Source: a virus
Lineage: Duplodnaviria > Heunggongvirae > Uroviricota > Caudoviricetes
Strand: one strand, 5' to 3'
Virus record (IMG/VR): IMGVR_UViG_2531839524_000004
Length of the DNA stretch: 64,000 nt
Numbering within the stretch: position 1 is the first letter of the stretch; each line of letters starts with the position of its first letter. Both the position numbers and the translations under genes were made by a program. The notes under the pieces were generated by a model. That model did not search any database. It worked only from the letters and a program-made list of their open reading frames with translations, and had not been told where the DNA came from. Of this stretch, positions 9,737 through 51,294 are shown piece by piece.

Positions 9737-12700
9737 ATGTGGTACAGGGAAGGTACTATCACATTTACACAGGGTAGCAATACTCTGGTTGGGGCAGGGA
9801 CAGCCTGGAACGTAACAGCTAATGGGGTGTTGCCTGGGATGATCGTCATTGGCCCCGACAACAAGCTGTATGAGATCAAGCGCGTAACCAGTGATACGAA
9901 CATTGTTCTCTCAGAACCTTATACCGGCGAAACTCAGTCTGAAGTTCCGTGCCGAATCATTACGACCTATGAAGGCGACTTAACACAGTTTAGCGCGCGC
10001 TTTACTGCACTAATGTCGCGTATGTCGGCTGATTCCAAGTCCATGCGCAGTTGGTTGACTGCTCTGGATGAGGTGACAATCGAGCGTGAAGACGGTACAG
10101 AAGTGACCGTTAAGCCGCTAATGCAGATCGTCAACGAGCACAACGAAAACGTTGAGTGGTATAAAAATAACACTGACGCGATTGATGCTGCTGGCGACAA
10201 AGCTCGTGAGGCGGCGGCCAGTGCTGCCGCAGCAGCAGAAAGCGCCAATACCGCTGGAGAAAAAGCCTCTCAAGCGTCTCAAAGTGCATCCGCTGCGGCA
10301 TCCTCACAAAGTGCTGCAAGTGCGAGCGCAACTGCTGCGAAAAAATCTGAAACGAACGCACAAGCCGCAAAAGAAGCGGCAGCAGAATCAGCATCTTTAG
10401 CGTCGGCCAAAGCATCGGAGGCAGCAACATCTGCGTCCAGTGCCTCTGCATCTAAGGATGCAGCCAAAGCATCAGAGACTAACGCTTCATCGAGCGCAAA
10501 CGCGGCAGCATCATCGGCAACAGAAGCTGCAAATTCGTCTAAGGCAGCAAAAACGTCAGAGGCAAACGCAAAAGCATCTGAAACGGCAGCCGAACAGAGT
10601 GCATCGTCTGCAAACAGTTCGAAATCTGCGGCAGAAGCGTCAGCAAGCGCAGCCTCAGCAAGTGCGGATAGTGCTTCATCAAGTGCAACAGCGGCAGGAA
10701 AATCTGCGGATAGCGCATTGTCATCAGCGACAACAGCTACCACAAAAGCGACAGAGGCGACGAGTCAGGCTACAGCTGCTAAAAATTCAGCATCTGCAGC
10801 AAAAACCTCTGAAACAAATGCAAAGACTTCAGAAGACAATGCTGCTTCCTCTAAGGCGGCAGCTGCTGAATCTGCAAGTTCTGCGTCTGCATCAGCCTCC
10901 TCAGCATCCGCTTCAAAAGATGAGGCGACCAAGCAGGCATCAGAAGCGAAGGGCAGTGCTTCAACGGCATCCACGAAAGCAACAGAGGCGGCAGGCAGTG
11001 CGACGGCTGCATCTCAGAGCAAAACTGCTGCTGAATCCGCTGCGACCCGTGCGGAAGCTGCTGCTGATCGTGCTGAAGAGATTGCCGGTGCAGTTGCGAT
11101 GGAAGACGCAAGCCTTACAACTAAAGGTGTTGTGAAACTTAGCAGTGCTGTCGATAGCACCAGTGAATCGCTGGCCGCAACGCCAAAAGCAGTTAAAGCA
11201 GCCAATGACAATGCGAATAGCAGGGTGCCATCTAACCGAAAAATTAACGGAAAAGCACTGACTGCGGATATAACATTAACGCCGAAAGATATTGGTACTT
11301 TAAATTCAGTAACGATGTCTTTCTCTGGCGGGGCTGGGTGGTTCAAACTGGCTACGGTTACCATGCCACAAGCGAGTTCCATCGTTTACATCACATTGAT
11401 TGGTGGTGCTGGATATAATGTTAACTCCCCTATGCAGGCTGGTATATCTGAACTTGTTCTTCGTGCGGGAAATGGAAATCCAAAAGGTCTTACTGGTGCG
11501 TTATGGCGAAGGACATCGGTTGGATTTACTAATTTTGCATGGGTGAATACATCCGGCGATACATATGATATTTATGTTGAGATTGGCAATTATGCGACGA
11601 GTGTAAATGTCCACTGGGATTGTACTGCAAATGCGTCAGTTTCTATTTATACATCGCCAACATATTCAGCGAGTAAGCCTGCCAGCGTTACCGATGGTGT
11701 TGTTTATACGATGTATAGCTCACATCAGAAACCTACGCCATCAGATATTGGAGCACTGCCAACAACCGGAGGAACAGTTTCTGGTCCGTTGTCTGTTACA
11801 GGCGGATTAACTGGTTCATTGAATGGTAATGCAAGTACAGCAACGAAATTACAGACGACAAGAACTATCGGCGGCGGGAGCTTTGATGGTACTGCAAATA
11901 TTAATTTGCCAGGTGTTAATACGACTGGTAATCAGAATACAACAGGTAATGCGGCTACTGCTACGAAGTTGCAGACTGCGCGTACTATTAATGGGGTGTC
12001 GTTTGACGGTTCGGCAAATATTTCCTTGTCACCAGCAAATATAGGTTGCCCGGCATCTCCTACTGGTTGGTTAACTACAGGAAGTAATGGCGGAGCAATA
12101 ACAACAGCCCAGTTAGTGACGTTATTGCAAAATAATGGAGCCTTTAACACAAAGGCATGGATTGCTCGATGTGCGTGGGCCTATGCCAATAGCGCAACCA
12201 TACCAAATAGTGAAACTGGTTGTGGCGTTATTCCATTGGCAGGAGCTGTTATAGAAGTATTTAATAACGGTAGTAGTTCAAATAATTATACGATCCGCAT
12301 AACAACGGCCACAACGACAAGTGTTTCCGGTGCTCTCACTAATGCGGAGTTTATCTATGTATTTAATGGCACAGATTATTCTCCAGGATGGCGAAGAGTA
12401 TATAACACGAAAAACAAACCAACTGCATCTGACGTTGGTGCATTACCTCTTACCGGTGGTACATTATCTGGAGGTTTGACATCTTCTGGTGAGATCGTTT
12501 CAAAATATGCAAATGGTTTCCGCATTGCTTACGGTAGCTTTGGGTTCTTTATCCGTAATGACGGCGGCAGCACATATTTCATGCTAACAGCATCAGGAGA
12601 TACGTTAGGTTCATGGAACGGCTTGCGACCGATTACAATTAATAATACTAGCGGGGTTGTGTCTATTGGTAATGGACTAAATGTTACTGGTGGCGTAAAT

Positions 12701-13645
12701 GGTAGTTTGAACGGTAATGCTTCAACAGCTACGAAGTTGCAAACAGCGAGAAACATCAATGGTGTTAAGTTTGATGGCTCAGGCGATATCAACATTAATA
12801 CATTGGTATCTCGTGGCCGAGTTACGGCGTTAAGCGGCTCTACTCAAGGCACTGCTGGCATTCAAATGTACGAGGCGTACAACAATAGCTATCCGACCAC
12901 GTATGGCAACGTATTGCACATGAAAGGTGCGAGTGCTGCTGGCGAGGGTGAGTTGCTTATTGGCTGGAGTGGTACGAGCGGTGCACATGCGCCGGTTTTC
13001 ATTCGCTCCCGAAGAGATACCACTGATGCAGCATGGTCAGCGTGGGCACAGGTATATACCGCTAAGGATTCAATCCCTGGTGTGAATACAACCGGTAATC
13101 AGAACACTACTGGTAATGCTGCCACCGCCACAAAATTGCAGACAGCAAGGAAAATTGCTGGTGTGGCGTTTGATGGCTCTGCCGATATTACTTTGACTGC
13201 GGCTAACCTTAATGCCTATACGAAAACAGAGGTAACAAACCTTCTAAGTTCCTATGTGAAGAGCAGTTCTCTTCCAAGCATGACTGTGCGAACTTCCTCT
13301 GTTTCAGGTGGGGATATGGGCATGAGTTTGTCCGCATTCATTAGCCACCTTAAATCAAATGGGGCGTTTAGCAAAAGTTATTGGATTGGCTTTGGCGATG
13401 CTATGGGATTCAATGCTGGCAGTATCAACAATATAACGGGATTTGGTGCTGTAGAATTAGCAGAATCCATAATCGAAGTTTTTAATCTACCTAATGGTGA
13501 TTATACAATTCGTTTAACGACGTCACACAAAGCTGACTACGGTGGGATTACAAACGCAATCCTCGTTTATCACTACCGCAGTAATAGAAACCCGGCAGGT
13601 CAATGGCTTAAATTTGCCGGTACTCTTGGGGCTACAAACAACTGA
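9737..13645 (+). CDS. Tail fibre protein
   Basis: 1302 aa; Ala/Ser-rich low-complexity segment, then four copies of 'GNA(S/A)TATKLQT(A/T)R.I.G..FDGS' and two copies of 'GVNTTGNQNTTGNA', motifs typical of phage fibre repeats; more AT-rich distal part. Confidence 0.75.
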   Translation: MWYREGTITFTQGSNTLVGAGTAWNVTANGVLPGMIVIGPDNKLYEIKRVTSDTNIVLSEPYTGETQSEVPCRIITTYEGDLTQFSARFTALMSRMSADSKSMRSWLTALDEVTIEREDGTEVTVKPLMQIVNEHNENVEWYKNNTDAIDAAGDKAREAAASAAAAAESANTAGEKASQASQSASAAASSQSAASASATAAKKSETNAQAAKEAAAESASLASAKASEAATSASSASASKDAAKASETNASSSANAAASSATEAANSSKAAKTSEANAKASETAAEQSASSANSSKSAAEASASAASASADSASSSATAAGKSADSALSSATTATTKATEATSQATAAKNSASAAKTSETNAKTSEDNAASSKAAAAESASSASASASSASASKDEATKQASEAKGSASTASTKATEAAGSATAASQSKTAAESAATRAEAAADRAEEIAGAVAMEDASLTTKGVVKLSSAVDSTSESLAATPKAVKAANDNANSRVPSNRKINGKALTADITLTPKDIGTLNSVTMSFSGGAGWFKLATVTMPQASSIVYITLIGGAGYNVNSPMQAGISELVLRAGNGNPKGLTGALWRRTSVGFTNFAWVNTSGDTYDIYVEIGNYATSVNVHWDCTANASVSIYTSPTYSASKPASVTDGVVYTMYSSHQKPTPSDIGALPTTGGTVSGPLSVTGGLTGSLNGNASTATKLQTTRTIGGGSFDGTANINLPGVNTTGNQNTTGNAATATKLQTARTINGVSFDGSANISLSPANIGCPASPTGWLTTGSNGGAITTAQLVTLLQNNGAFNTKAWIARCAWAYANSATIPNSETGCGVIPLAGAVIEVFNNGSSSNNYTIRITTATTTSVSGALTNAEFIYVFNGTDYSPGWRRVYNTKNKPTASDVGALPLTGGTLSGGLTSSGEIVSKYANGFRIAYGSFGFFIRNDGGSTYFMLTASGDTLGSWNGLRPITINNTSGVVSIGNGLNVTGGVNGSLNGNASTATKLQTARNINGVKFDGSGDININTLVSRGRVTALSGSTQGTAGIQMYEAYNNSYPTTYGNVLHMKGASAAGEGELLIGWSGTSGAHAPVFIRSRRDTTDAAWSAWAQVYTAKDSIPGVNTTGNQNTTGNAATATKLQTARKIAGVAFDGSADITLTAANLNAYTKTEVTNLLSSYVKSSSLPSMTVRTSSVSGGDMGMSLSAFISHLKSNGAFSKSYWIGFGDAMGFNAGSINNITGFGAVELAESIIEVFNLPNGDYTIRLTTSHKADYGGITNAILVYHYRSNRNPAGQWLKFAGTLGATNN

Positions 13646-16787: not shown

Positions 16788-17456
16788 ATGACCAAGATCT
16801 TTGTGGTTGGCGGCACAAAGGGCGGGCCTGGCAAATCCACCGTTGCCCAGCAAATTGCCGTTTGCCTGAAAGTCAAAAAGAAGAAGAAGGTTTATATCAC
16901 TGATATAGATATTCAGCGCACGACAACAAGCTGGTGTGAAGACCGTCGACAGAACGAAGACCTTGAGCTGATTCCTTTTGCATACGTTCAGGATGACATC
17001 ATTAAGCACCTAAAATCGCTTCAGGGTAGAGCTGAGTTTGTAGTGGTAGATGCTGGTGGCTTTGACTCCGAAATTCAGCGACAAGCGATGCTGATGGCCG
17101 ACGTTATCATTATCCCGCTGCGTCCTAAGCGTCGTGATTTGAAATCTTTACGTGACATCGATCCTATTATCGACAATGTTCGTAATGTAAACGATAAAGT
17201 GAAGGTCCGCGCGGTCATGAACCAGTGCCCGGCTTTGCCATCACAAGTGTCTCGCATTTTGGCGGCTAAAGAGATTGTCGAGACGTTTGGCATCGAGTCT
17301 GCGCCAGTCAATTTATATAACCGCAACGTCTATGATGATGCGGAAGAGTCTGGTCGTTCTATCTTTGAAATGACCGGTAGCGAGCGCGACAAAAAGGCGG
17401 AAGCCGAGTTTGAAGAATTTGTAGATTATCTGTTGAGTCTGGAGGAAGAAGAATAA
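16788..17456 (+). CDS. parA: ParA-family partition ATPase
   Basis: Deviant Walker A 'GGTKGGPGKST' near the N-terminus; 222 aa; followed by a small DNA-binding partner gene. Confidence 0.8.
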   Translation: MTKIFVVGGTKGGPGKSTVAQQIAVCLKVKKKKKVYITDIDIQRTTTSWCEDRRQNEDLELIPFAYVQDDIIKHLKSLQGRAEFVVVDAGGFDSEIQRQAMLMADVIIIPLRPKRRDLKSLRDIDPIIDNVRNVNDKVKVRAVMNQCPALPSQVSRILAAKEIVETFGIESAPVNLYNRNVYDDAEESGRSIFEMTGSERDKKAEAEFEEFVDYLLSLEEEE

Positions 17457-17867: not shown

Positions 17868-18635
17868 TTATGCCGCGCTAACACTATGTTCAGTCCTAAC
17901 CACCCCAACCTTCACAAAAGGGCTACCGTAGCTTGGTGGCTTCTTGATTAATTTGCCTACATACAGTTTTCTAATATGCTCATCGGCTATTCTGCCAACA
18001 AATTCATAACGTTTTGTGTCGGGGCCAAGAGCTATATCCCTTGTAAAGTACTGCTGAGAACCGGCTTTGACCCAGCATTCAATCTGATAAACTTCCATTA
18101 TCAGCCCACCATATGTAGCGTAGGCATATTTGAGATTCTCGTCTCTTGGAACCTTTGCCCATACGCCACGCGTAGCTTCATATAATGCCAGAGCGGACAT
18201 TCCTGACTTGTAGGTGCTGTTTAGCAGGAAGGCAAGACCGGCGTGCTCAGGAGCAATTTCAGTTTCCTCTTGCAGCACTAAGTGATGGTAGGCGTCCAGT
18301 GATATTCTGCCCATCATGGAACCACTTCCTCGTACCTTATTCGTAAGCTCTCCGACCCCCATAAGGTCGATGCATGTCGCCTCAACAAGTTTGGCTGTGG
18401 TTTCATCCATACCATGACGAAGTATATCTATGCCTAATTTTTTATTAGCCAAAAGTTCTTTGATCCGCATGGATTTGGGAGAGTCATCGGGATACTTGAT
18501 GTGATCGAGACAACGAGTCGATTTGCCTTTTCCTATGTAAAACGGTCTTTTCATCTTGTCTTCTGTATCATAGAGACAGTAAACATAGTATTTAGCCTTA
18601 TCCAATGATCTCGCGTATACCGATAAATCGTCCAT
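17868..18635 (-). CDS. GIY-YIG nuclease-domain protein
   Basis: N-terminal 'YYVYCLYD...RPFYIGKGKSTRCLDHIK' matches the GIY...YIG motif; about 200 aa of uncharacterised C-terminal sequence. Confidence 0.6.
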   Translation of the reverse strand: MDDLSVYARSLDKAKYYVYCLYDTEDKMKRPFYIGKGKSTRCLDHIKYPDDSPKSMRIKELLANKKLGIDILRHGMDETTAKLVEATCIDLMGVGELTNKVRGSGSMMGRISLDAYHHLVLQEETEIAPEHAGLAFLLNSTYKSGMSALALYEATRGVWAKVPRDENLKYAYATYGGLIMEVYQIECWVKAGSQQYFTRDIALGPDTKRYEFVGRIADEHIRKLYVGKLIKKPPSYGSPFVKVGVVRTEHSVSAA

Positions 18636-19702: not shown

Positions 19703-21043
19703 ATGACCGAACTTTGCCATACAGGACGCGGGCTGTCCGAAGAGTTTGATGAAGATTTCCAGAACAGACTGACGGCATATTTTTGTCGTGATCACGAGTT
19801 TCTTACTCGTGCGGGAGATCTGGTTGTGCCTAGCCAATTTGCCAATGCGGCCAATGCCATATTGGTTAATATGGTTTCGGGCTATTACCGTATGTACAAG
19901 AGCGCGCCCTCTTCATCTGCAATTCTGGATATGCTTAAGCGTGCGAAACGCGATAAGACTATCCGTGAGGAACTATTCGCCGATGTTGTTGCTGCGTTTA
20001 AGCGCATTCTTGCAGAAAAATTGTCCGATACCTCGTACATGGTTGACCAGGTATCAACCTTCGCAAAAAGTGTAGCGTTTGATGATGCTCTGATTAAGGC
20101 TGCTGAACTGAAAGAGAAAGGCGACTTTCACGGGGCGATGGCAATCATGGCCAAGGTTCAGCAGATTGGATCGAACGAAGCGACCGGAATCTATGACTAC
20201 TACACCTCCGCAAGTGAGCGATTGAAAGCGCGTGAATATGAGGCTTCAGAGGAGTATGTACCAAACAGTATTACAACTGGACTCCCTCTTCTCGATAGGT
20301 TGCTGTACCAAAAAGGCTGGGCAAAGCGCGAAATGGTGCTCTTCATGGGGTTCGCTAAATCCGGTAAATCGACCGCAATGGGTGAGTTTTCCATAAACGC
20401 AACACTTGCTGGCTACAATGTTCTGTATCTCTCGCTGGAGGTTCACACCACCATTTTATCCGACCGTTTTGATGCAAGATTGTCGGAGACGGAAATGTCC
20501 AAGTTGGTGGAACGGCGCGATGAAGTTCATCGCAAGTTGGCAGAGTTGGGAGCTACGAAGGGTATTGGTAGTTTGTGGGTTGTTGAGCGTCCGTCAGGAA
20601 GTATGTCACCGGCAGATCTGGACCGTATGCTTAACAGCATGAAAGCCAACGGCATGGTGCCTGACATGGTTGTTGTCGACTACGCAGATTTGATGCGTGC
20701 CAGTTATGACCTTCGTGATGATCGCGCCAACATTCGTAGTATCTACACCGATTTACGTGCTCTTTATGACAAGCATAACGTTGCTGGGATCACGGCATCG
20801 CAGACAAACCGTGAAGGTGGCGCGTCAGAAGTTGCCACAATGATGCACGCTGCCGACAACATCGAAAAAGTACGTATTGCTGACCTGGTAATAACGATCA
20901 ACAAAACCGAAGAAGAAGAAGCGAAAGGAGAGGCTCGTCTCTACTTTGCTGGTTCACGTAACCAGCAGGGAGGGATCAGCATTCGCGTTAAACAAAACCT
21001 CGAACAAATGCGCTTCATTGAGCGAATCTTAGACGTTACCTAA
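19703..21043 (+). CDS. DnaB-like replicative helicase
   Basis: Walker A 'GFAKSGKST', Walker B-like 'VVVDYADLM', and 'SQTNREG' motif. Confidence 0.8.
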   Translation: MTELCHTGRGLSEEFDEDFQNRLTAYFCRDHEFLTRAGDLVVPSQFANAANAILVNMVSGYYRMYKSAPSSSAILDMLKRAKRDKTIREELFADVVAAFKRILAEKLSDTSYMVDQVSTFAKSVAFDDALIKAAELKEKGDFHGAMAIMAKVQQIGSNEATGIYDYYTSASERLKAREYEASEEYVPNSITTGLPLLDRLLYQKGWAKREMVLFMGFAKSGKSTAMGEFSINATLAGYNVLYLSLEVHTTILSDRFDARLSETEMSKLVERRDEVHRKLAELGATKGIGSLWVVERPSGSMSPADLDRMLNSMKANGMVPDMVVVDYADLMRASYDLRDDRANIRSIYTDLRALYDKHNVAGITASQTNREGGASEVATMMHAADNIEKVRIADLVITINKTEEEEAKGEARLYFAGSRNQQGGISIRVKQNLEQMRFIERILDVT

Positions 21044-21052
21044 AAAATAAGC

Positions 21053-22306
21053 GTGGAGAACACCTCCACGCTTGATTCATTGGTGAAACAACTTTTCTTT
21101 TGCCAAACCACAAAAGAAAAACACATGAGCCTTTATGTTATATCAACATTTAGGTTGGTCACAATATTGCCTGTTAAAAGTGGAATTATCGTGAGCGAGC
21201 TGAAAGAGCTAATTACCGAATTAGATTTTGAACAATGGTTGGATACTGAAGGTATCGTTTATCGACGTGGAGGCGTGAGTACTCGCGGTCGTGAAGTGAA
21301 TATCAAGGAGTGTCCGGTATGTGGCAGCTCCAACTGGAAGGTATATTTCAATCTGACCAGTGGCGTCGGTAAATGCTTCGCTGGTGATCATCCCGAAGAG
21401 ATTCAGTTCAATAAGCTGGTCTTCCTCAAGCACTACAGCGGCAAATCACGACGACAGTTCGAGGAATATGTGCAGAACGCCCTTCTTTCCCAGGGGTGGG
21501 CACCAAAGAAAGAAGAGCTAGTGCTTGCAAGCACAGTCGAGTTAGAGGGGCCAGTTGCACTCCCTCGTCATTACGAGCTTCCTATAGATGGTCGTCTTCC
21601 AGACTATCTGGTTGAACGAAACATATCGCCTGAAATGGCAAAGTATTTTGACCTACGATACTGCGTCGAAGGCAAGCACGCCTATGTAGATCCGTATACA
21701 GATCAGGTTAAAGGACAGATATTCGATATGCGAATACTGATACCGGTTTACGATCTGGATGGGGTAATGAAGACATTTCAGGGACGAGACATTACCGGTA
21801 CAGCAGAACGTCGCTACCTCTTTCCTATGCAGCTTCCAGCTTCAGGTAAGTTTCTCTACAACGGCCATAATGCAGTCGGCAAACAGACGGTAGTTGTCTG
21901 TGAGGGGGCGTTCGATGTTATGGGGGTCAAACGAGCTATTTTTGACGAAGAAACATTACGTGATTACGTGGAACCAATAGGAACGTTCGGGATGCATCTA
22001 TCTGGCAACACCACTCAGGATGCAGAAGATCAGCTGGGCGCGTTCCTGACGCTCAAGGCGCGTGGATTACGTAATGTGATCATGATGTGGGATAGTGAAA
22101 AGCAAGCTATACGCAACACTATGGCCGCAGCTAGGCGACTCACAAGTATTGGCCTTAATGTCAAAGTTGCGTGTTTGGGCGAGGAAGGACTCGACCCCGG
22201 CGATGCGACACCGGGGCAGATTATCAAAGCCTACTATTGCGCAAAACCTTATTCACGACAGCTTGAACTCTTAAGCAAGGTGAAAGGCATTGCAGCACTA
22301 GTTTGA
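21053..22306 (+). CDS. DNA primase (zinc-binding plus TOPRIM)
   Basis: 'CPVCGSSNWKVYFNLTSGVGKCFAGDH' zinc-ribbon-like element and 'VVVCEGAFDVMG' TOPRIM acidic motif; true start may be downstream of 21053. Confidence 0.7.
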   Translation: MENTSTLDSLVKQLFFCQTTKEKHMSLYVISTFRLVTILPVKSGIIVSELKELITELDFEQWLDTEGIVYRRGGVSTRGREVNIKECPVCGSSNWKVYFNLTSGVGKCFAGDHPEEIQFNKLVFLKHYSGKSRRQFEEYVQNALLSQGWAPKKEELVLASTVELEGPVALPRHYELPIDGRLPDYLVERNISPEMAKYFDLRYCVEGKHAYVDPYTDQVKGQIFDMRILIPVYDLDGVMKTFQGRDITGTAERRYLFPMQLPASGKFLYNGHNAVGKQTVVVCEGAFDVMGVKRAIFDEETLRDYVEPIGTFGMHLSGNTTQDAEDQLGAFLTLKARGLRNVIMMWDSEKQAIRNTMAAARRLTSIGLNVKVACLGEEGLDPGDATPGQIIKAYYCAKPYSRQLELLSKVKGIAALV

Positions 22307-23335
22307 ACCAGTATTAGTCACGTAAACATTGACCGAAAATGATTTAACTTCTGTGTTGAAGTTGTCAGTCATTACCGCGAGGTAGGCATTCTTGGTATCT
22401 CTGAATTGCTTCAGGATGATTTGAACGTTATCGGTGCAAACAAACGAGGTAGCCAGATTGCCTCCTTTCTCTGAAAAATCCTTTAGGAAAGTGCAGTCAA
22501 TTTTGCCATCATTAGCGGTGAAGGTGGCATCATCACCCTGCCAGGTAAATGTTGCGTTAACGCCTTTATCAATGGATTTAGCAATAAGTCGCTGAGTGGA
22601 GGATTTTGCTTTAGATCTTGCTGCTGATGGTTGGTATTTACCGCTTTCTTTTAGTTCTGCAATGTAATCACAGCCATTTTTATCTTCTTTATCGCAAGCT
22701 GCCTGATAAAGCTCAGCTGCTTTTTTATAATCTTTTTTAACCCCTTCACCATACTCATACATAATGCCAAGATTCGCCAATGCAGATGCACTGCCTAGTT
22801 CGATTCCTTTTTTATAATACTCTATTGCCTTTTTGTAGCTTTTTGGCACGCCTGCGCCAACATAATATAACTGTCCTAGATATGACGCAGATTCAGGGTC
22901 GCCAGCCTCTACTGCAAGTTTGTGATATTTCAGGGAAAGTTTTTGGTCTTTCTTACCCGCAAGTCCTTTATGATAAATAACACCCAGATTGTGATAAGAG
23001 TTGCCTCCAGCTGCATCACCAGCTTTCTTAAAGAGTTCCTCTGCCTTTTTGAAATTTTTATCAACCCCATACCCAAGGGCATACATTATACCTAGAGCAT
23101 TAAACGCTTCTTTGTTCCCCTTAGAAGTCGCCAGTTCAAGCCATTTTCTGGCTTCATCGTAGTTTTTTTCGACACCATGAATACCTTTCATATAGTCGAT
23201 ACCTAAAGCACTCTGTGACTCAACGTCGCCTGCTTTTGCCGCATCGATCAGCTTTTGTATTTCATAGGCATGTGCACTCCCCGAAACAAGTAATAGCGAC
23301 AACATAAAGAAAGATATTGGTTTGAAATGTTTCAT
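22298..23335 (-). CDS. Secreted Sel1-repeat (SLR) protein
   Basis: Signal peptide 'MKHFKPISFFMLSLLLVSGSAHA'; multiple ~36-aa repeats of the form 'A...LG.MY..G.GV.KNY.KA..' typical of Sel1; opposite strand to the flanking replication genes. Confidence 0.75.
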   Translation of the reverse strand: MKHFKPISFFMLSLLLVSGSAHAYEIQKLIDAAKAGDVESQSALGIDYMKGIHGVEKNYDEARKWLELATSKGNKEAFNALGIMYALGYGVDKNFKKAEELFKKAGDAAGGNSYHNLGVIYHKGLAGKKDQKLSLKYHKLAVEAGDPESASYLGQLYYVGAGVPKSYKKAIEYYKKGIELGSASALANLGIMYEYGEGVKKDYKKAAELYQAACDKEDKNGCDYIAELKESGKYQPSAARSKAKSSTQRLIAKSIDKGVNATFTWQGDDATFTANDGKIDCTFLKDFSEKGGNLATSFVCTDNVQIILKQFRDTKNAYLAVMTDNFNTEVKSFSVNVYVTNTGSN

Positions 23336-23516
23336 TTTTGGATTTTCACAAGATGGTTAGGTGGTTGTGGCTACTCGGTGTAAGGCTTTGTAATCACCGA
23401 TTGGTAAGGTTACTTCAATTTAGCTTAACTGTCAGCATACCCAATCGCCGAAAAGATAAGTAGATGATTACTTATTAGTGTGTAAGAATACTGCCATCTG
23501 TTAGCTAGGAGTTGGT

Positions 23517-24299
23517 ATGAAAGAAGAAATTAAGAGATTAGCCTGCAACATCATTGATAAAACTGGTTTAGAAATCAGCGAGAGCAATCGGCTAGACATC
23601 ATTGAAAAAGCCGTCAATACGGCAATGGATCATATCGCCACTCGTTTGGTCGAGATCCCGCTACCGGGGCTACCTTATCTGAAGGTTAAGTTGCGCGTAT
23701 GGGGCGAACCTGCACATGCACGACGTTCTGCATTAGTTGTTTTTGTACGCAAAGAAAACTTACGAACTCTAAAAGTGCAGGTTGGGGCGTGGTTTGATGG
23801 CAGAGTCATCTATACAGATACCATTATCTGTCCTCCAGGTGACGAACATATTGAAGCCGTCATTCGAGAATCAATTCGAGCTATGCGCAGTTTAGCTTTG
23901 CTGGAAGACAAGCAAAACTTTGAAGATTACTTGCTGTCGGTAAAAGCTGAACCAACATTGTCTCTGAAAGCCGATTTCGTCACCCCGACAAATCTGTTGG
24001 AGGTTTTGATTAATAAAGGGGCTAATGATGCTGTAAACCTAATCAGGGAAAGCGAATATTCGACTCTTTGCGACATGTGCAAAAGCCAGTTGGATCTGGT
24101 GCATATCGTTATTGATGCTGGGAAGGCATGTGATGGCGTAATGGCTGAATTTGCTGGGAAGATGGTCAGGATTGCTAACGAATTACCGATGATAGAGCAA
24201 GAGGCCAAATCATACGCCACCAATCATGTCACAGAGCTTCTTGCCCCCTATCGCTTAGAAAGCGATCAGCGCAAGATGATTAGCTGGGGAAGTTGGTAA
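23517..24299 (+). CDS. Hypothetical protein
   Basis: 260-aa ORF; no motif recognised. Confidence 0.5.
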   Translation: MKEEIKRLACNIIDKTGLEISESNRLDIIEKAVNTAMDHIATRLVEIPLPGLPYLKVKLRVWGEPAHARRSALVVFVRKENLRTLKVQVGAWFDGRVIYTDTIICPPGDEHIEAVIRESIRAMRSLALLEDKQNFEDYLLSVKAEPTLSLKADFVTPTNLLEVLINKGANDAVNLIRESEYSTLCDMCKSQLDLVHIVIDAGKACDGVMAEFAGKMVRIANELPMIEQEAKSYATNHVTELLAPYRLESDQRKMISWGSW

Positions 24300-24366
24300 G
24301 CTCTCTGTGTGTCGTTTTTTACGCAAATAATGATAGGTAAGCACAAGATTATTTCTGGCGGTAATT

Positions 24367-24837
24367 GTGAAAGCTGATTTGTCAAAAATCCCTTCTATTT
24401 CAGGAAATAACGGTTATTCACTTCGTTGTGAGGAAGTAAAGATAAACGGTGAGTCGGCATATTGCAGCTATTCCGTTTGCCAGCACACCATTCTTGCCTT
24501 CAAAGAAAACCGTCTTCCTCGAACTTCTTTCCAGTCGTGCGCAACCGCTATCAAAGCAGGCAAATGCAAGGCGTTAAAAATGATGGTTGAAGAGATTCGT
24601 AAAGGAGAATCTCTGTATTTCGAAGATATGACCGCGCTCATTAAGGAGGTTGAAGAACGGAATAAACAAGCCAGAACTATAAAACGAAAACGTGACAGTG
24701 TAACGATTAATAGCATGGTTAAGAAGAGCACCACATCACAAACAGCGATCACTGACGTGTATGCGGCGTTGCTTGAAGAAACAACAAAAGAAACACATGA
24801 GCAAATCGATCAACATATGGAGGCAAAACAACAATGA
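24367..24837 (+). CDS. Hypothetical protein
   Basis: 156-aa ORF with several Cys near the N-terminus; stop overlaps the ligase start. Confidence 0.45.
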   Translation: MKADLSKIPSISGNNGYSLRCEEVKINGESAYCSYSVCQHTILAFKENRLPRTSFQSCATAIKAGKCKALKMMVEEIRKGESLYFEDMTALIKEVEERNKQARTIKRKRDSVTINSMVKKSTTSQTAITDVYAALLEETTKETHEQIDQHMEAKQQ

Positions 24838-26156
24838 AAAAGTTGATCGCACTTAAGCATAAGCTGGACGAAATGAAAGCTATGGGAACCAATGCAAAAA
24901 AAGAGGCATTGGCCAACATGGATGACTTCGAGCAAAGCATGGTTTCATTGATGCTCAACCCTTTCATCCGTTTTGGGGTAAAGAAATACAAAGTGGCAGA
25001 GCCGCTTAGTGAGTCCGTCCCAAGTGACGAAAAAGCCATTGATATACTGAATAAGCTGGCCTCTCGCGAGCTGACGGGGAACGCAGCAATAGCTGCTGTT
25101 GAGTCTATCGTGGCGTCAATGTGCGCCGATGGGCAGGACGTGTTCCGTCGTTTCCTCTTAAAAGATCCGAAAGCTGGCGTTGGGATTAGCCTATGTAACA
25201 AGGTTTTTGAAAATCCCATTCCGAAATTCGAGGTGCAGCTGGCGTCACCGTATAAAGAAAAAGGCGACAAATACCCCTTCAAGCCAAATCCTAAAGCCAA
25301 ATGGCCGATGATTGGCAGTCTTAAGCTCGATGGTTTGCGAGTAATTTGCGAGGTTATTGTTGACGAGGAAGAGGTTAACTTCCTTTCTCGTACTGGTAAT
25401 CCAATCACGTCTCTCGATCACCTAAAGCCAGCCATGCTCGAATTAGGCAAACTTTCAGGCCACAAACACATCTTCTTCGATGGTGAAGGAACTGCCGGTT
25501 CATTTAACCAGTCCGTATCTGCATTGCGCAAAAAGAACGTGCAGGCAATTGGCGCTATTTATCATGTTTTCGACTTCTTCCTACCGGAATGGCGAGCACA
25601 GGCTAAATCCAAAGAGTATGCAAAGACAGGTATGAAGCTGAAAGAGCGCCTGGCTATGCTGGTGGCGTTGTTCAAAAACGATCGCAGTGAAGGCTACACA
25701 CAAGACATTCACCTGCATCCGTTCTATATCATCCATAGCCACGAAGACTTCATCGAACGCTTCATGAAACGCCTGGACGATAACGAAGAAGGGGAGATGG
25801 GCAAAGATCCGAACTCTGTTTACGAGTTTAAACGTACCCGCAGCTGGTGGAAGTTAAAAGACGAAGATTCAGAAGATGGTGAAATTATCGACTTTGAGCC
25901 GGGCGACCCGGACTCTGGTTTTGCCAACACACTTGGAAAAATTGTTATTCGTCTTGAAAACGGCGTCATCGTTCGTGCGAGCGGTATTAAGCATAAATAT
26001 CTGGACGAGATCTGGAACAACAAAGAGAAGTACCGTGGTCGTATTGTTGAGGTTCATTGTCACGAGAAAACACCGGATGGCAGCTTACGCCACCCCCGAC
26101 TGAAATGGCCGCGTTGCTTACGCGATACAGAAGATCGAATCGGAGATAAAGAATGA
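24834..26156 (+). CDS. ATP-dependent DNA ligase
   Basis: Adenylation motif KxDG in 'MIGSLKLDGLRV'; 440 aa. Confidence 0.7.
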   Translation: MKKLIALKHKLDEMKAMGTNAKKEALANMDDFEQSMVSLMLNPFIRFGVKKYKVAEPLSESVPSDEKAIDILNKLASRELTGNAAIAAVESIVASMCADGQDVFRRFLLKDPKAGVGISLCNKVFENPIPKFEVQLASPYKEKGDKYPFKPNPKAKWPMIGSLKLDGLRVICEVIVDEEEVNFLSRTGNPITSLDHLKPAMLELGKLSGHKHIFFDGEGTAGSFNQSVSALRKKNVQAIGAIYHVFDFFLPEWRAQAKSKEYAKTGMKLKERLAMLVALFKNDRSEGYTQDIHLHPFYIIHSHEDFIERFMKRLDDNEEGEMGKDPNSVYEFKRTRSWWKLKDEDSEDGEIIDFEPGDPDSGFANTLGKIVIRLENGVIVRASGIKHKYLDEIWNNKEKYRGRIVEVHCHEKTPDGSLRHPRLKWPRCLRDTEDRIGDKE

Positions 26157-27992: not shown

Positions 27993-28209
27993 ACACAACA
28001 GGAAAGAGCATTGAAACCCGCCGAGACTGCCCTGTTTTAAGCGTAAGTCCGTGCAAACGTCATACAGTGCTCTTTTCGTTGTGGTTGATGCGCAGACTGA
28101 TGCGCGGAAAGAAATGCCCCAGCGACACACGAGGCGAGTTCACACACTGCAATGCAGTCAGTAGCCGGGGTCGCTAAGCCGGAGATCAGTACCGGTAACC
28201 ACAACAATT

Positions 28210-28296
28210 GGAGAGTAGGGAGCATGGTGCTCAAGCGGTCTTGAAAACCGTCCCATTGTGCAAACGATGATGGTTCGATTCCATTACTCTCCGCCA
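28210..28296 (+). tRNA. tRNA-Ser (anticodon TGA), long variable arm (tentative)
   Basis: Acceptor GGAGAGT/ACTCTCC, anticodon loop CTTGAAA, T-loop GGTTCGATTCC, encoded CCA; D-arm is unusual. Confidence 0.55.
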
Positions 28297-28297
28297 G

Positions 28298-28376
28298 ACA
28301 CAGCGTTGAGCGGTTTGGCCTTTTAATCAACTCGATTAAGACTCCGCTAACATAAACCAGACCGCTCAACGCTGTG
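28298..28376 (+). ncRNA. Hairpin element C (16-bp perfect stem, 46-nt loop) abutting the 3' end of tRNA-Ser
   Basis: 'CACAGCGTTGAGCGGT' pairs with 'ACCGCTCAACGCTGTG'; loop contains 'TTTTAATCAACTC' and 'GACTCC'. Confidence 0.45.
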
Positions 28377-28450
28377 ATAGATAATTACGGCAGACGTTCT
28401 TAACCATAGCTTGCTAACATCCTAGCAACACTTTTTTCAGCGCAAAATTC

Positions 28451-28473
28451 AAAGGGGCTTCGGCCCCTTTTTT
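28451..28473. terminator. Bidirectional rho-independent terminator
   Basis: 'AAAGGGGC-TTCG-GCCCCTTTTTT' with an A-tract on the other side; between the tRNA cluster and the convergent minus-strand gene. Confidence 0.65.
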
Positions 28474-28488
28474 GTTGAACAGTGCAAT

Positions 28489-29751
28489 TTACTTTGCATA
28501 GTCGCCCAATTTTAATATTTCGCGCTTATATTCATTAACCATGCTACTGGATTCAGTATAAATTCGATTTAAAAGATTATCGTTATCTTTATTTTCATTT
28601 ATCTTAATTAGTGCTAATTTATATTCATAGTCATCAAATGCCACAATTAAATGGTGGCCTGGGATTATATCTTCGTCACTCTTAAAGTATATATCTTCAA
28701 GTATGTAATCTAGTTGATTAGATTTTCTTTTCTCGATGTAATCTTCAGCCATAGCTATTACATCATTCCTGTCATTTAACCTGTTTTTTTCGGAAGGCAC
28801 ATCTTCGTAATGTTGCACGATTGAACAACCAATAAGGCGTGGGATGTAAACGTCAAAATGAGTAACTCTATCATTCGCGGTTTTAAGTAGTTCCTCAAAG
28901 TAGTTTCTTACATGTAAAGGCAACTTCTCAAAGTAATCATTAATTATAGGAGAACAAGGAGTTTTATAATTCATAAGAACCGACGGTACGAGCTTTGGGT
29001 GTCGAAACATCCAGTCCCTTTTAACGTCCGATGGAACATAATAACTTTTAATGATATTATCAAAATAATTTATCATTCGAGATTTGAATATTTTGTTGAA
29101 TCTAAGGTTTATGAATGTATCCAGATAAGGCATATTTGAATAAGCATCATCAAAAAATATTTCATCATTGAAAAAATCATATTTATTCAATAAACAACAC
29201 AGTTTTTCCGAATTAATATGTTCACAATAATCGATTTTTAATCCAAAGATAGCAATGATCAACTTCATCTGAGGTGGGATTTTAAAAATTAATTGTGACA
29301 CATACGCTCTTTTTTCCTTGAGACATTCCCCATCAATATAAAATGAACCATCCACATACTCAAATATATTAATAATATGCTTCACATACTGTATTACCTC
29401 ATGCTGTCTTACCAATGGATAATATAGTCTATGTAACTCATCGCTGTTTAAATTAATTTTGTGTTTATCGATAATTTGTTTTGCAAGAAGACATAACTCA
29501 TCATGTTGATTTAATAAGGAATCAAACCATTGTTTAAATGCACTCTTTCGCATTTCGAACAATGATTCAGTTGTTAATTGAAGGGCTGAAAAAGCTGCTT
29601 TTGCACTTTTTCTCGCTTCGTAGGCATTCCATGCTGTTGCTATAAAAGCAAATGCTGTAGCCAATGTTCCAACAGTTTGACCATTTAAAACAACCCAATC
29701 CCAAAAAATGACGGTGAGCAGTAGTATAATAATGAAAATTAAAAAAGGCAT
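28489..29751 (-). CDS. Membrane-anchored hypothetical protein encoded in an AT-rich island
   Basis: 420 aa; two N-terminal TM segments then a large soluble domain with no motif I recognise; locus is visibly much more AT-rich than surrounding phage genes. Confidence 0.6.
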   Translation of the reverse strand: MPFLIFIIILLLTVIFWDWVVLNGQTVGTLATAFAFIATAWNAYEARKSAKAAFSALQLTTESLFEMRKSAFKQWFDSLLNQHDELCLLAKQIIDKHKINLNSDELHRLYYPLVRQHEVIQYVKHIINIFEYVDGSFYIDGECLKEKRAYVSQLIFKIPPQMKLIIAIFGLKIDYCEHINSEKLCCLLNKYDFFNDEIFFDDAYSNMPYLDTFINLRFNKIFKSRMINYFDNIIKSYYVPSDVKRDWMFRHPKLVPSVLMNYKTPCSPIINDYFEKLPLHVRNYFEELLKTANDRVTHFDVYIPRLIGCSIVQHYEDVPSEKNRLNDRNDVIAMAEDYIEKRKSNQLDYILEDIYFKSDEDIIPGHHLIVAFDDYEYKLALIKINENKDNDNLLNRIYTESSSMVNEYKREILKLGDYAK

Positions 29752-30381: not shown

Positions 30382-31485
30382 ATGAAAAATAGCTTTGACA
30401 GAGCACGCGCTGCGGAGAACACCTCAAAAGAGGCGATTGAGTATCTCGAAAGAGCATCTCAAATGCAGGCCGTTATGATCTCGCAGGTTAGCAATGATAT
30501 GAGATTCTCGGACGCATTCATGTTATTTACTCGCTTATCTCTGCTGATAACAAGACGTCGGCCGGAGATCGCTGTTCATTGTATTTTGATACATGTTTTG
30601 CCGCACATTGCTGATGTAAAAGTAAGTGACATTAATAGGTTCATGGTGAACCAACTGGTCAACCCCCTAATACTGGATGGCAAAATTGTTATGGGCCGCC
30701 GCGTTTTCTCTCTGATGAAGCAGTTCCTTAGCTGGTGTGCCTTCCAGGGGATGATCGACGTGTCACCGTTAAACGATATGTCACTAAACAAAGTTGCCGG
30801 TGGCGCAAAGCCCACGCCTCGCGAGCGGAAGCTAACCGACGCAGAGGTATGGGTGTTCTGGAATATATGGGACTACTTCAATGTGTGCGCTGGTACAAAA
30901 TGGGCGGCCAGGCTATGTCTTGTATCCGCAAGACGACCTGACGAAGTACTGCGGGCTAAAAAAAGTGAGTTCAACCTCCAGCGTGGGGTTTGGAATCAAG
31001 GCAAGAGAAACAAATCAGCCCGTGAGCATTCTCTGCCTTTAAGCACATTAATGCGCACATGCATTGAAGAGTTATTCGAATATGGTAAAGGCAGCCAGTG
31101 GCTTGTGCCTTCGAATAAAAAAATCGGGAAAGATCTTCCGATGTCTAAAGTGGCAATAGCCCAGGCATTACGCCGTATCCTGGAACGACCAGAACTGATG
31201 GAGCTTGAGCCATTTACACCACGAGATTTGCGTCGTACTGCGCGTAGTTACTTCCCAGCATTAGGCATAAGCCAGGAGGTATCACGTAAAATCATGAACC
31301 ACAGTCTTGAGGGGATAGATCGGGTCTACGACCGGCACGATTATATGGACGAGATGCGAGACGCCTTAGAAAGTTTCTCGACGTACATCGCATCAATCGT
31401 AGAGCAACCGGATTTAGACGAAATTGACCACAAATTCAAGGGAGATCGTCTATCGACAGAGCTTATTCGTGTAAATTTTTCATAG
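30382..31485 (+). CDS. Tyrosine recombinase / integrase-family protein
   Basis: C-terminal 'TPRDLRRTARSYF...IMNHSLEGIDRVYDRHDY' resembles the HxxR...H...Y catalytic region of tyrosine recombinases, with Arg where the first His is usual; 'SARRPDEVL' is a box I-like Arg. Confidence 0.65.
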   Translation: MKNSFDRARAAENTSKEAIEYLERASQMQAVMISQVSNDMRFSDAFMLFTRLSLLITRRRPEIAVHCILIHVLPHIADVKVSDINRFMVNQLVNPLILDGKIVMGRRVFSLMKQFLSWCAFQGMIDVSPLNDMSLNKVAGGAKPTPRERKLTDAEVWVFWNIWDYFNVCAGTKWAARLCLVSARRPDEVLRAKKSEFNLQRGVWNQGKRNKSAREHSLPLSTLMRTCIEELFEYGKGSQWLVPSNKKIGKDLPMSKVAIAQALRRILERPELMELEPFTPRDLRRTARSYFPALGISQEVSRKIMNHSLEGIDRVYDRHDYMDEMRDALESFSTYIASIVEQPDLDEIDHKFKGDRLSTELIRVNFS

Positions 31486-39746: not shown

Positions 39747-40595
39747 TCAATATTTAACAAATATTTCATTAAGCCTAGGGTTAACTTGGTCATATTTATC
39801 TATGTCGTCTTTTAAAACTGAATGACATTTGACACCAATTTCAAATGCTATCAATATCGAATTTATATATTGATTATAGCATTCAATCAAAGATTTAATA
39901 TCAGATGATAGTTGTATCAACCGTGGATTGACTCTAAGAGCACTAATAACCTTATCATACTTGTTAAGCAACCCATTCAATTCATTAGCAAAATTATATG
40001 GATAACCATTTTGGTATGTATTTTCATCATCAGCAGGACCTAAATAATCACCAATGCACTTAAGTTTATTCTTAATGAATACAGCATCTTCAGTGGCATC
40101 TATATCATTTTTCGTTAAGAAAAGTTCTATCCACTTGTTCTTGTCCGACTCTTTCAAAAGGTTATTTTCTTTATCAAAAGTAATACAATAGCTATCACTT
40201 TTTTTCTCGTTGGAAATACTAATCATTTCCGCCAACTCGTCTTTACCTAAATGTTTCCAAAATATTACAGGGAGACCGTTGTCGTTTAGAAAAACGCGAA
40301 CAATGACAATCGGATCATTAATACTTTGCCAATAAATTAAATTTTTAATAGGTACAGAAACTCTTAGTGAATCATCGATTTTTTTACTTGTTGTTTTAAC
40401 TTGAACTCCAATAAACATACCTGTTGAATGACAGTTGTCATCATAAATCTCAACCTGAGCATCCAACCCCATGTCAATATCAAGAATTCGGCAAGGCCAT
40501 ACAAATTTATTTGAAATCCAATATGCGAAATAAAACTCACCAGCATTTCCGTTAGCAACTCTTTCGATATATCTCATGCCCTGATCGTTTGCCAC
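39747..40595 (-). CDS. Hypothetical protein with possible PD-(D/E)xK nuclease-like N-terminal domain, in an AT-rich island
   Basis: 282 aa; N-terminal 'GNAGEFYFAYWIS...ILDIDMGLDAQVEIYDD...FIGVQVKTT' gives a G-x-D...Q-x-K pattern reminiscent of restriction-endonuclease-like folds (inference); strongly AT-rich. Confidence 0.5.
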   Translation of the reverse strand: MANDQGMRYIERVANGNAGEFYFAYWISNKFVWPCRILDIDMGLDAQVEIYDDNCHSTGMFIGVQVKTTSKKIDDSLRVSVPIKNLIYWQSINDPIVIVRVFLNDNGLPVIFWKHLGKDELAEMISISNEKKSDSYCITFDKENNLLKESDKNKWIELFLTKNDIDATEDAVFIKNKLKCIGDYLGPADDENTYQNGYPYNFANELNGLLNKYDKVISALRVNPRLIQLSSDIKSLIECYNQYINSILIAFEIGVKCHSVLKDDIDKYDQVNPRLNEIFVKY

Positions 40596-49546: not shown

Positions 49547-50081
49547 CACCGCTGACAGCATACACAATCAACTACCGCTGATAGCATATCGAGAGTCTAT
49601 CTCACCGCTCACAGCATACTTTACTCGATTTTTTACCGCTGACAGCATACTTAAGAAATTGCATGAATAATGTGTCCCAGTATGGGTATAACCAGAACAA
49701 AATTACCGCTGGCAGCATACGAATGTCTGACATATACCATTAATTACCGCTGATAGCATATCCAAACAAAAATTCCTCAATAAAACACCGCTGACAGCAT
49801 ACGTTCTATCAGGGAGTAGCAGGCAATAAATGCCTTTCACTACAAGCAATCAGCGCAATAGCAATAGAATGTTAGTGAGCGCAAACCTATATGGAATGCA
49901 CTCTTCGAGGTTAGTAACCACTGGGGAGGTATGACAGAGCATTGAGTGGTGATAGATGATTTACCGCTCACAGCATACGTTCATCTCACTATACCGCTGG
50001 TAGCATATCTTTAACCGTTCACAGCATACTTTTCAGAAAAATAGCCGCTGATAGCATACATTTCACCGCTGACAGCATATC
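49547..50081. repeat. Array of 12 iterons (17-19 bp, consensus (T/C)ACCGCTGACAGCATAC) downstream of repA
   Basis: Copies start near 49547, 49573, 49603, 49634, 49704, 49745, 49786, 49961, 49992, 50013, 50043, 50064; spacing is irregular and copies carry point variants. Confidence 0.85.
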
Positions 50082-51294
50082 AAAGCAGTTTGAGACTATT
50101 GGAAAGGATCTCAATCATCTTGATATTTTCAGGCGTCAAATTCTGCGAAAGTTCGGTTATCTTGTTGATAATGTTCTGTTTGGCATCAATTTCCCCAGCT
50201 TTCTCATCTGGTTTTTTGGGTTCGATGTCTTCAGGTTTTGGCGGTGCGACTTTGAGTTTTGGATTGCGGCTGTGAATCTGGATATAGATCGACCGCCCAC
50301 GCTTAATCTCGCTGTATTCGAGATAGCCCAAATCTTGGAGAGCTTTTAAGCCGTTACGTATAGTCTGATTCTGCGAGCTGACATTCCTGCTACTCAAATT
50401 GAGTCGCGCACGCAATCGAGCAAGCGATACCGGCGCAGGCTTGGTTGGAAGACTTTCGATGAAGGTGTACAGAGCCTGTGCTGTTTCTTTGCGTGGTAGC
50501 TTATTGATAACCTTTAACTGCAAAAGAACCTTATGGTCAAAGCGATATAGTTCGGCCAGCTTCGGTTCTGCATAGAACACCACCGTATCTTTCTGCTCGT
50601 TGTAGTCCACGCTATTGATGAGGTGCACCATCAGAAGCGAGATCTTGTTAGAGCCGTCGACGTTCTTTTCTTCATACGTTCTCTGGAAAGACAGAGTTGT
50701 ACGCATGATCTTCAAAAGACTGTTTGTAAGCCGGTCGCGGAGTGTTTTGCGGATCTGTGACGATGGATAGCCACAAAACTTAGCAAATTTCGTGATGCTT
50801 AACTCGACACGACCGTTAGGTTCGCCGTATTCTGCCAGCGAACGCACAACGCCCACCCACGTTTTGAAATCATGATCCATGTCGAGACGAGGACCGGTTA
50901 TCTTGATATCGGAATAGCCTTCAGAACGGGCTACTTCGAGCTGGACAAGCTCCTTTGAAGCATCGATCTCATTTGGCTTGTTACGTTTACTGTATTTTGT
51001 TCCCTTAAGCGTGGGGACGAACAACCCCAGTCGCATCAACGCAATTGGTTGGACTGTATTGTTGCTATTAGGGACAAGTTCCCCTGTGTACAATTCAAGG
51101 GAACCTTCTTCAAAGTTGTCGATGTTATCTTCTACTTCTTTGTTATTTTTACCTTTTTTATTTTTTGTGGACATGTGGACACCTTTGTCATTCAACCGCT
51201 GACAGCATACTTGATTTGCCGCTGACAGAATACCAAAAACAGTTGGCAGCATACGGTGAACCGCTGACAGACTATCAATTACCGCTGACAGCAT
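50080..51294 (-). CDS. repA: Replication initiator protein (iteron-binding RepA-type)
   Basis: 404-aa protein whose gene is bracketed by iterons on both sides, overlapping its start and stop; a P1 RepA-like arrangement. Confidence 0.7.
   Translation of the reverse strand: MLSAVIDSLSAVHRMLPTVFGILSAANQVCCQRLNDKGVHMSTKNKKGKNNKEVEDNIDNFEEGSLELYTGELVPNSNNTVQPIALMRLGLFVPTLKGTKYSKRNKPNEIDASKELVQLEVARSEGYSDIKITGPRLDMDHDFKTWVGVVRSLAEYGEPNGRVELSITKFAKFCGYPSSQIRKTLRDRLTNSLLKIMRTTLSFQRTYEEKNVDGSNKISLLMVHLINSVDYNEQKDTVVFYAEPKLAELYRFDHKVLLQLKVINKLPRKETAQALYTFIESLPTKPAPVSLARLRARLNLSSRNVSSQNQTIRNGLKALQDLGYLEYSEIKRGRSIYIQIHSRNPKLKVAPPKPEDIEPKKPDEKAGEIDAKQNIINKITELSQNLTPENIKMIEILSNSLKLL

Follow-up and report, generated by a model that had tools for sequence, protein, structure and literature searches.

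Background

Proteins built from Sel1-like repeats (SLRs) include immunity proteins of type VI secretion systems (T6SS), such as PA5087 and PA5088 of Pseudomonas aeruginosa and Sel1E of Klebsiella pneumoniae, the last directed against VgrG4, which neutralize a toxin by binding it directly in the periplasm. Phages, for their part, carry classical morons, or lysogenic-conversion genes, for exported proteins, among them bor and lom of λ, cor of φ80 and N15, and llp of T5. Here we describe a gene for an exported Sel1-repeat protein on a 64,000-nucleotide stretch of DNA (IMG/VR virus record IMGVR_UViG_2531839524_000004; hereafter the window), which is an SSU5-like Escherichia coli phage-plasmid. The gene (22298..23335, minus strand) is complete and codes for 345 residues plus stop, with a predicted mature form of about 35 kDa and an isoelectric point (pI) of 8.5. 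As a bona fide Sel1-repeat protein its product is of a known kind; what is new is that the repeats are fused to a near-orphan β-barrel, that the two modules are obligately coupled, and that the gene behaves as a promiscuous moron accompanied by a conserved promoter-like element of its own.

Clinical and livestock E. coli commonly harbor SSU5-like phage-plasmids, whose accessory genes have for the most part yet to be characterized; the Sel1/barrel cassette is among the most recurrent of these. Such elements also carry resistance genes, for instance CTX-M-15 on pECOH89 (PMC3999498). In RefSeq, members of the family are annotated simply as "tetratricopeptide repeat protein" or "sel1 repeat family protein".

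An exported protein of two obligately coupled modules

The N-terminus reads MKHFKPISFFMLSLLLVSGSAHA followed by YE, and displays a basic n-region, a hydrophobic core of 13 residues and an AxA cleavage motif, without a lipobox. These features delimit a signal peptide of residues 1-23 (23267..23335, minus strand), the character of which is retained in 23 distinct homologues despite drift of the N-terminal sequence; consistent with this, residues 1-19 are unstructured in an AlphaFold model, with a predicted local distance difference test (pLDDT) score below 50. The protein is thus, by strong inference from its sequence, exported to the periplasm by the Sec route, in agreement with the signal peptide noted in a first-pass annotation of the window.

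That annotation had also recognized Sel1 repeats and a distinct C-terminal domain, and both are borne out. The Pfam Sel1 profile (PF08238) matches five repeat stretches with 127.6 bits against a cut-off of 30.7 (E=1e-37). In a full-length AlphaFold2 model built from ten homologues (mean pLDDT 83.6) residues 24-230 (22646..23266, minus strand) form, with pLDDT above 90, a solenoid of 12 helices arranged as the α/α-hairpins typical of the Sel1 family; sequence periodicity resolves it into an N-terminal cap helix, five repeats of 35-37 residues (approximately 41-218) and a C-terminal cap helix, and Foldseek likewise matches it to Sel1 proteins. A basic, predicted disordered linker of 18 residues (231-248; 22592..22645, minus strand) follows, which is the most variable segment of the protein. 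Beyond it, residues 249-345 (22301..22591, minus strand) constitute a domain of about 95 residues that is acidic (pI 5.2), belongs to no Pfam family and is predicted to adopt an eight-stranded up-and-down β-barrel. The full-length model shows this region (249-340) as an all-β domain, and modeling of it by itself, with more distant homologues included, yielded the eight-stranded barrel with a pLDDT of 90 and a predicted TM-score of 0.80. Its conserved motifs are NVQ, KNAY and TDNF.

Examination of the conservation pattern revealed two cysteine pairs. Cys214 and Cys222 (22670..22696, minus strand), separated by seven residues in a spacing like that of the Hcp proteins, lie in the last repeat and the cap, and Cys281 and Cys300 lie inside the barrel. 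All four are invariant in the 23 distinct sequences, even in one with a barrel identity of only 36%, and this invariance in an exported protein suggests two periplasmic disulfides. The Sel1 solenoid appears to be a protein-binding scaffold, tied by a flexible linker to the near-orphan barrel.

An exhaustive phmmer search with the barrel across 1.84 billion cluster representatives returned eight matches, of which seven were genuine, and all seven have the Sel1-plus-barrel architecture or are fragments of it. The eighth, P0125, was rejected as a spurious repeat match; P0123, a candidate stand-alone barrel, proved to be the 3' half of a split gene. Searches of Pfam with ten barrel sequences (E≤10) gave no consistent family, and a barrel profile search recovered no relative among PDB sequences.

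A solitary cassette acquired by several phage backbones

In PLSDB the barrel-coding DNA is found in 61 plasmids (58 of them with the full-length gene), as against 189 with the backbone helicase, that is, in approximately one third. Among the carriers are many E. coli isolates of clinical and animal origin, along with others recovered from soil, water and wastewater, and the family has further homologues in Pantoea and Leclercia; some 30 plasmids of about 110 kb from Enterobacter hormaechei and Citrobacter freundii have more divergent versions, and in the one Enterobacter locus examined the gene occupies the same slot as in SSU5-like elements. This slot is also the location in 20 of the 24 IMG/VR loci. 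The first-pass annotation had called Sel1-repeat proteins uncommon phage cargo, which holds for sequenced phages, as only 15 of 50,697 phage records have any Sel1-type match and none has the barrel, but needs qualifying since the family itself is a phage family, phrog_8741 (full-length match E=1e-143; the barrel alone E=5e-66). The profile of this family, annotated as of "unknown function", has 380 positions and corresponds to the common form with six repeats; the allele of the window is one repeat shorter.

Beyond this slot, the gene turns up at moron sites of unrelated prophages, on small plasmids and in chromosomal islands. In two Leclercia prophages (loci L014 and L039) the gene directly follows a λ-type J tail-tip protein and a tail fiber, and in a third (L037) it lies downstream of a J-type tail-tip protein; in L034 it stands between the tail tube (FII) and gpE chaperone genes of a P2-like tail module. 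In two short metagenomic contigs it adjoins a plasmid Replicase gene (PF03090); the most divergent members of the family, with barrels 36-45% identical, are those beside this Replicase (L009:1-647 and L008:1773-2327), and L009 has the gene divided between a Sel1 open reading frame (ORF) and a 91-residue barrel ORF. On the chromosome of Pseudenterobacter timonensis it is found amid CdiA fragments, a NERD gene and an insertion sequence, though not as part of a toxin/immunity pair, and in Pantoea replicons it stands beside unrelated metabolic and regulatory genes. On an E. whittamii chromosome (NZ_JACSQI010000004) it is flanked by a 146-residue fragment homologous to the SSU5-type primase (L011:8496-8936), and the retention of this fragment suggests that the cassette was captured from a phage-plasmid. 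The gene varies in presence between collinear genomes, is of atypical composition, and occurs on SSU5-like, λ-like and P2-like backbones: it is a self-contained, solitary accessory cassette, or moron, that three or more phage backbones have acquired independently of one another. Such independent acquisition by several temperate-phage lineages implies that it probably benefits the lysogen.

Within the window itself, the program-made list of ORFs places the 345-residue frame exactly at the coordinates given above, as the first-pass annotation had it: an opposite-strand gene inside the replication block. It is convergent with, and overlaps by nine nucleotides, the DnaG/Toprim primase, which together with a DnaB-like helicase occupies 19703-22306 (plus strand), and an ATP-dependent DNA ligase gene (24834-26156, plus strand) lies on its other side. 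The region 21000-25000 is about 95% identical to that of the closest phages, Cyrano, CMS-2020a and PhiR41_1, all of which lack the gene. Relative to Cyrano the cassette is an indel of roughly 1.2 kb (approximately 22239..23446) that comprises the 3' end of the primase, the gene and about 110 nucleotides upstream of it; homology with Cyrano ends about 22 codons ahead of the primase stop, so that the cassette provides the primase with a different 3' end (22239-22306). Its GC content is 40.9%, as against 45-48% in the flanks.

In SSU5 the same slot holds, on the same strand, a 321-residue cytoplasmic ORF, SSU5_041 (L007:5309-6274), with no Pfam match; it was rejected as a counterpart of the Sel1-repeat/β-barrel gene, being unrelated and devoid of a signal peptide. 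In pECOH89-type plasmids the Sel1 gene is accompanied by an additional 137-residue ORF without a Pfam match (L002:3977-4390). Given that the slot is empty in Cyrano and filled differently in these elements, the interval between the primase and a 260-residue gene (window 22239-23516) is a cargo hotspot of SSU5-like elements.

Comparison of the regions upstream of divergent copies revealed, some 90-100 nucleotides ahead of the start codon, an element of the general pattern CTGACA-N17-TA(A/C/T)(C/T)CT, which in the window reads CTGACA-N17-TAACCT and lies about 72-100 nucleotides upstream of the ATG (23407..23435, minus strand). It is kept in six divergent lineages, namely the window allele, the common E. 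coli allele, an Enterobacter-type phage-plasmid, the E. whittamii and Pseudenterobacter chromosomal copies and a P2-like prophage, between which the surrounding DNA is otherwise unalignable. The pattern occurs once in the window, against 0.06 occurrences expected. It preserves the most strongly conserved sigma-70 positions (TGACA, and in the -10 hexamer T1, A2 and T6) with a spacer of optimal length, and would fit a weak constitutive or a regulated promoter. A generic promoter and terminator scan detected no minus-strand promoter upstream, the element scoring below its threshold, and no terminator-like site downstream; Rfam recovered no RNA family in 22000-23700. Independent expression, as proposed in the first-pass annotation, has indirect support, the best of it from the promoter-like element and more from the low GC content and the minus-strand orientation of the Rep3-type replication initiator described below.

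A constant barrel and a plastic repeat array

Family members fall into length classes of 345, 381 and 417 residues, exact steps of 36, in addition to forms of 409-426 residues. The 345-residue allele of the window is rare, being found in two PLSDB records, three E. coli genomes and three IMG/VR contigs. When it was compared with the common allele, represented by pECOH89, the two halves of the gene gave entirely different values. Over residues 24-170 of the Sel1 region nucleotide identity is 61%, with the proportion of synonymous differences (pS) saturated at 0.78 and a nonsynonymous divergence (dN) of 0.36; over the barrel it is 96.6%, with a synonymous divergence (dS) of 0.15 and a dN/dS ratio (ω) of 0.03, close to the 95.2%, 0.21 and 0.04 of the backbone primase. 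As synonymous sites are saturated in the Sel1 region while the barrel has diverged about as much as the backbone, the 5' half of the window gene is an ancient allele that recombination has imported, with the breakpoint near the linker. Recent positive selection on this divergent half was considered and rejected, because of the same saturation and a ratio of nonsynonymous to synonymous differences (pN/pS) of 0.15 among close alleles. The alleles L002 and L003, both of 381 residues and otherwise near-identical, differ by 10% of nucleotides solely in the last Sel1 repeats (residues 171-230 in window numbering), which points to further small-scale recombination inside the array.

Among ten close alleles of the 381-residue class pN/pS is lowest in the barrel (0.05), intermediate in the Sel1 region (0.15) and highest in the linker (0.40); the array and the barrel alike are under purifying selection. 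Across 22 sequences (the distant P0124 excluded) mean identity is 82% for the barrel and 61% for the Sel1 region. The family thus combines a constant barrel with a more plastic Sel1 array that recombines and varies in its number of repeats.

These values also bear on the possibility that the gene is neutral hitch-hiking cargo or is decaying. While two-thirds of the backbones do without it and with no obvious consequence, and split or truncated copies turn up occasionally (L009, L013 and L023), the strong purifying selection (ω of 0.03-0.05 in the barrel and 0.15 in the Sel1 region), an intact frame with its four cysteines in all 23 distinct sequences, and its repeated acquisition by unrelated backbones make this explanation, already disfavored, a highly improbable one.

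Proposed function and its alternatives

The above observations lead us to infer that the protein is a lysogenic-conversion product that acts in the periplasm by binding another protein. The reading we favor, while putting it somewhat short of an even chance, is that it neutralizes an incoming foreign protein that acts in the periplasm, either as an orphan immunity protein or in superinfection exclusion. While carried as a plasmid or in a lysogen, the gene would be expressed from a weak promoter of its own, of the sigma-70 type, and its product would serve in the carrier periplasm as a stoichiometric binder or inhibitor, whose candidate targets are an interbacterial toxin of the T6SS, contact-dependent inhibition or colicin type, or an envelope-breaching enzyme of a superinfecting phage. 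Target recognition would fall to the Sel1 array, which varies, recombines and is polymorphic in repeat number, whereas the invariant barrel would contribute an unchanging activity, either blocking an active site or docking to some conserved component of the envelope. An advantage to the carrier cell would account for the spread of the gene among temperate elements.

Four lines of evidence argue for this: Sel1-repeat proteins are established as periplasmic immunity proteins (PA5087/88, and Sel1E against VgrG4); the barrel fold is used by the periplasmic inhibitors PliC/MliC and BtaiB; solitary carriage at moron sites of three unrelated temperate-phage backbones fits a function of use in any lysogen; and a variable array joined to a constant barrel fits variable recognition coupled to constant action.

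Several observations weigh on the other side. No cognate effector stands beside the gene in at least six contexts compared, and an all-against-all comparison of neighboring ORFs revealed no co-travelling partner or toxin gene across the contexts. Purifying selection on both modules means that there is no gene-wide signature of an arms race. Judged against the consensus the promoter is weak, and the gene has a poor Shine-Dalgarno sequence. Among the PADLOC-DB defense profiles the sole match is a spurious one to PtuA (16 bits), and a literature search found no functional or expression study on any member of the family. The structural neighbors of the Sel1 module point the same way: with Foldseek, the full model matched PDB entries only in its helical part, over 200-230 columns, and the top matches (6ok3, 8sxq, 6deh, 4bwr and 1ouv; E~1e-11, about 31% identity, with a probability of 1.00 for several) include LpnE, LceB, c5321 and HcpC, which are generic or host-directed rather than immunity proteins. 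The SLR-type T6SS immunity proteins PA5087, PA5086 and PA5088 (5jkp, 6lch and 5jjo) rank lower, with E-values of 2e-5 to 4e-4 and about 21% identity.

The same holds for the barrel. Its fold matches (DUF4251 with a figure of 9.9, DUF1842 with 8.7, BtaiB and Cap15 with 8.5 each, and PliC/MliC with 7.5-8.0) also include avidins and outer-membrane barrels, and every one of them is at most 18% identical, so that the resemblance to inhibitors lies in a fold common to avidins, outer-membrane barrels and several DUFs. PliC and MliC bear two signature loops, SxSGAxY and YxxxTKG. A regular-expression search of the barrel found neither, and Pfam returned no MliC match at E≤10. In the viral structure library BFVD the best barrel matches are stand-alone phage proteins of about 110 residues, one of which is annotated as a "putative lysozyme inhibitor".

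The matches to LpnE, LceB, HcpC and c5321, the last a protective antigen of uropathogenic E. coli, together with the many clinical and animal E. coli among the carriers, raise the alternative that the protein is a virulence factor that interacts with a eukaryotic host, released or surface-exposed so as to bind, for example, an immunoglobulin or a trafficking factor. This is improbable: the sequence contains a Sec signal only, with no lipobox, autotransporter or other outer-membrane route, the matches reflect the generic Sel1 solenoid, and carriers also come from soil, water, wastewater and plant-associated hosts, with further homologues in Pantoea and Leclercia.

We regard as still less probable that the barrel, as a calycin- or avidin-like domain, sequesters a small periplasmic ligand or confers resistance, with the Sel1 array as its scaffold. 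The fold is indeed common to avidins, the cyclic-dinucleotide receptor Cap15 and lipocalin-like proteins, the polar conserved motifs NVQ, KNAY and TDNF could line a pocket, and there is weak Sel1-level similarity to the phenylmercury resistance protein MerG. However, the searches against PDB sequences and Pfam (E≤10) yielded no sequence relationship of the barrel to ligand-binding families, the NCBIfam match to MerG (E=1e-10) is confined to the Sel1 repeats and reaches 41.8 bits against a cut-off of 350, and the neighbors include no associated transport or resistance gene.

The main alternative, although we consider it unlikely, is that the Sel1 array binds an endogenous periplasmic enzyme or sensor, such as a lytic transglycosylase, a protease adaptor or a two-component sensor domain, so that peptidoglycan turnover, stress signaling or surface properties are retuned to the advantage of the element. 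A Sel1-repeat protein of Legionella, EnhC, resides in the periplasm and inhibits the Slt transglycosylase there. The nearest named relatives in NCBIfam, MotX, AlgK, ExoR and MerG, are likewise periplasmic Sel1 proteins with endogenous partners, and a barrel that is near-invariant across Escherichia, Enterobacter, Leclercia and Pantoea, together with purifying selection on both modules, fits a conserved host target better than a fast-evolving foreign one. Nevertheless, these NCBIfam matches are at the Sel1 level only, with none for the barrel, and all are far under their cut-offs, and envelope tuning poorly explains why the Sel1 array should show deep allelic divergence, recombinational swaps and variation in repeat number within one species.

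Returning to neutralization of a foreign protein, we offer in a more speculative vein a specific version of it, which in all its parts is rather doubtful: the gene might encode a modular, phage-borne orphan immunity or exclusion factor, in which the barrel is a new inhibitor or docking domain and the Sel1 array an exchangeable recognition cassette, retuned by recombination and by gain and loss of 36-residue repeats, that shields the carrier against toxins active in the periplasm or against lysins brought by superinfecting phages. Identification of the periplasmic target would show what phrog_8741 and its as yet unclassified β-barrel domain do, and could reveal phage-delivered immunity against interbacterial toxins or superinfection; should the function be mundane tuning of the envelope, the gene would be an ordinary moron.

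Other features of the window

A Rep3-type plasmid replication initiator (50080-51294, minus strand) and a ParA/MipZ-like partition ATPase (16788-17456, plus strand) are consistent with a plasmid lifestyle of the element. Adjacent to the cassette, at about 23455-23516 and upstream of the plus-strand gene for the 260-residue protein, lies a region conserved with Cyrano in which the palindrome-like AAGTAGATGATTACTT is followed by TAAGAAT; it may be the promoter/operator of the downstream operon.

Further candidate cargo is found elsewhere. An island of 31.7% GC at 28037-29751 (minus strand), with ORFs of 420 and 110 residues that have no Pfam match, is probably another accessory cassette, and an integrase-family gene (30382-31485, plus strand) adjoins it. 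The 282-residue DUF4365 protein encoded at 39747-40595 (minus strand), in a segment of 36% GC, is likely to be the product of another accessory gene. Just upstream of the helicase block a minus-strand gene (17868-18635) codes for a 255-residue protein with a LEM-3-like GIY-YIG nuclease domain, and positions 10001-11000, within a 1302-residue ORF (9737-13645), have an unusually high AT skew of 0.30 at 52.7% GC.

Comparison with known systems

In common with the SLR proteins HcpC (1ouv), c5321/EsiB (4bwr), LpnE (6deh), LceB (8sxq) and that of Oxalobacter (6ok3), the present protein is predicted to be exported and to form an α/α solenoid of repeats of 35-37 residues; it differs from all of them in its C-terminal β-barrel and in that the family is phage- or plasmid-borne. 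The Hcp proteins have a disulfide-forming pair of cysteines separated by seven residues in every repeat, whereas here the only such pair (C214/C222) belongs to the last repeat and the cap, and the remaining repeats are free of cysteine.

The predicted barrel is, like those of the PliC/MliC lysozyme inhibitors (PF09864), eight-stranded and periplasmic. At 7-10% identity to these and to the Bacteroides T6SS immunity protein BtaiB, and with a fold common to many unrelated proteins, the likeness is a fold-level resemblance and not membership of the family. Identity to DUF4251 (4gdz) is 18% and to DUF1842 (8t0b) 7%, with no profile-level match.

With the SLR immunity proteins, such as Tli5/PA5087 and Sel1E, the present protein shares the exported Sel1 fold, and Sel1E also bears a C-terminal extension, of unknown fold; but the genes for PA5086, PA5087, PA5088 and Sel1E adjoin that of the cognate effector, whereas the Sel1-repeat/β-barrel gene is always solitary. 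Like the morons bor, lom, cor and llp it is a single optional gene of lower GC content with its own promoter-like element and a product that appears to be targeted to the envelope, and in λ-like prophages it sits beside the tail-fiber genes. It differs from them in having no sequence or fold relationship to any of the four, and in that its product is predicted to be neither a lipoprotein nor an outer-membrane protein.

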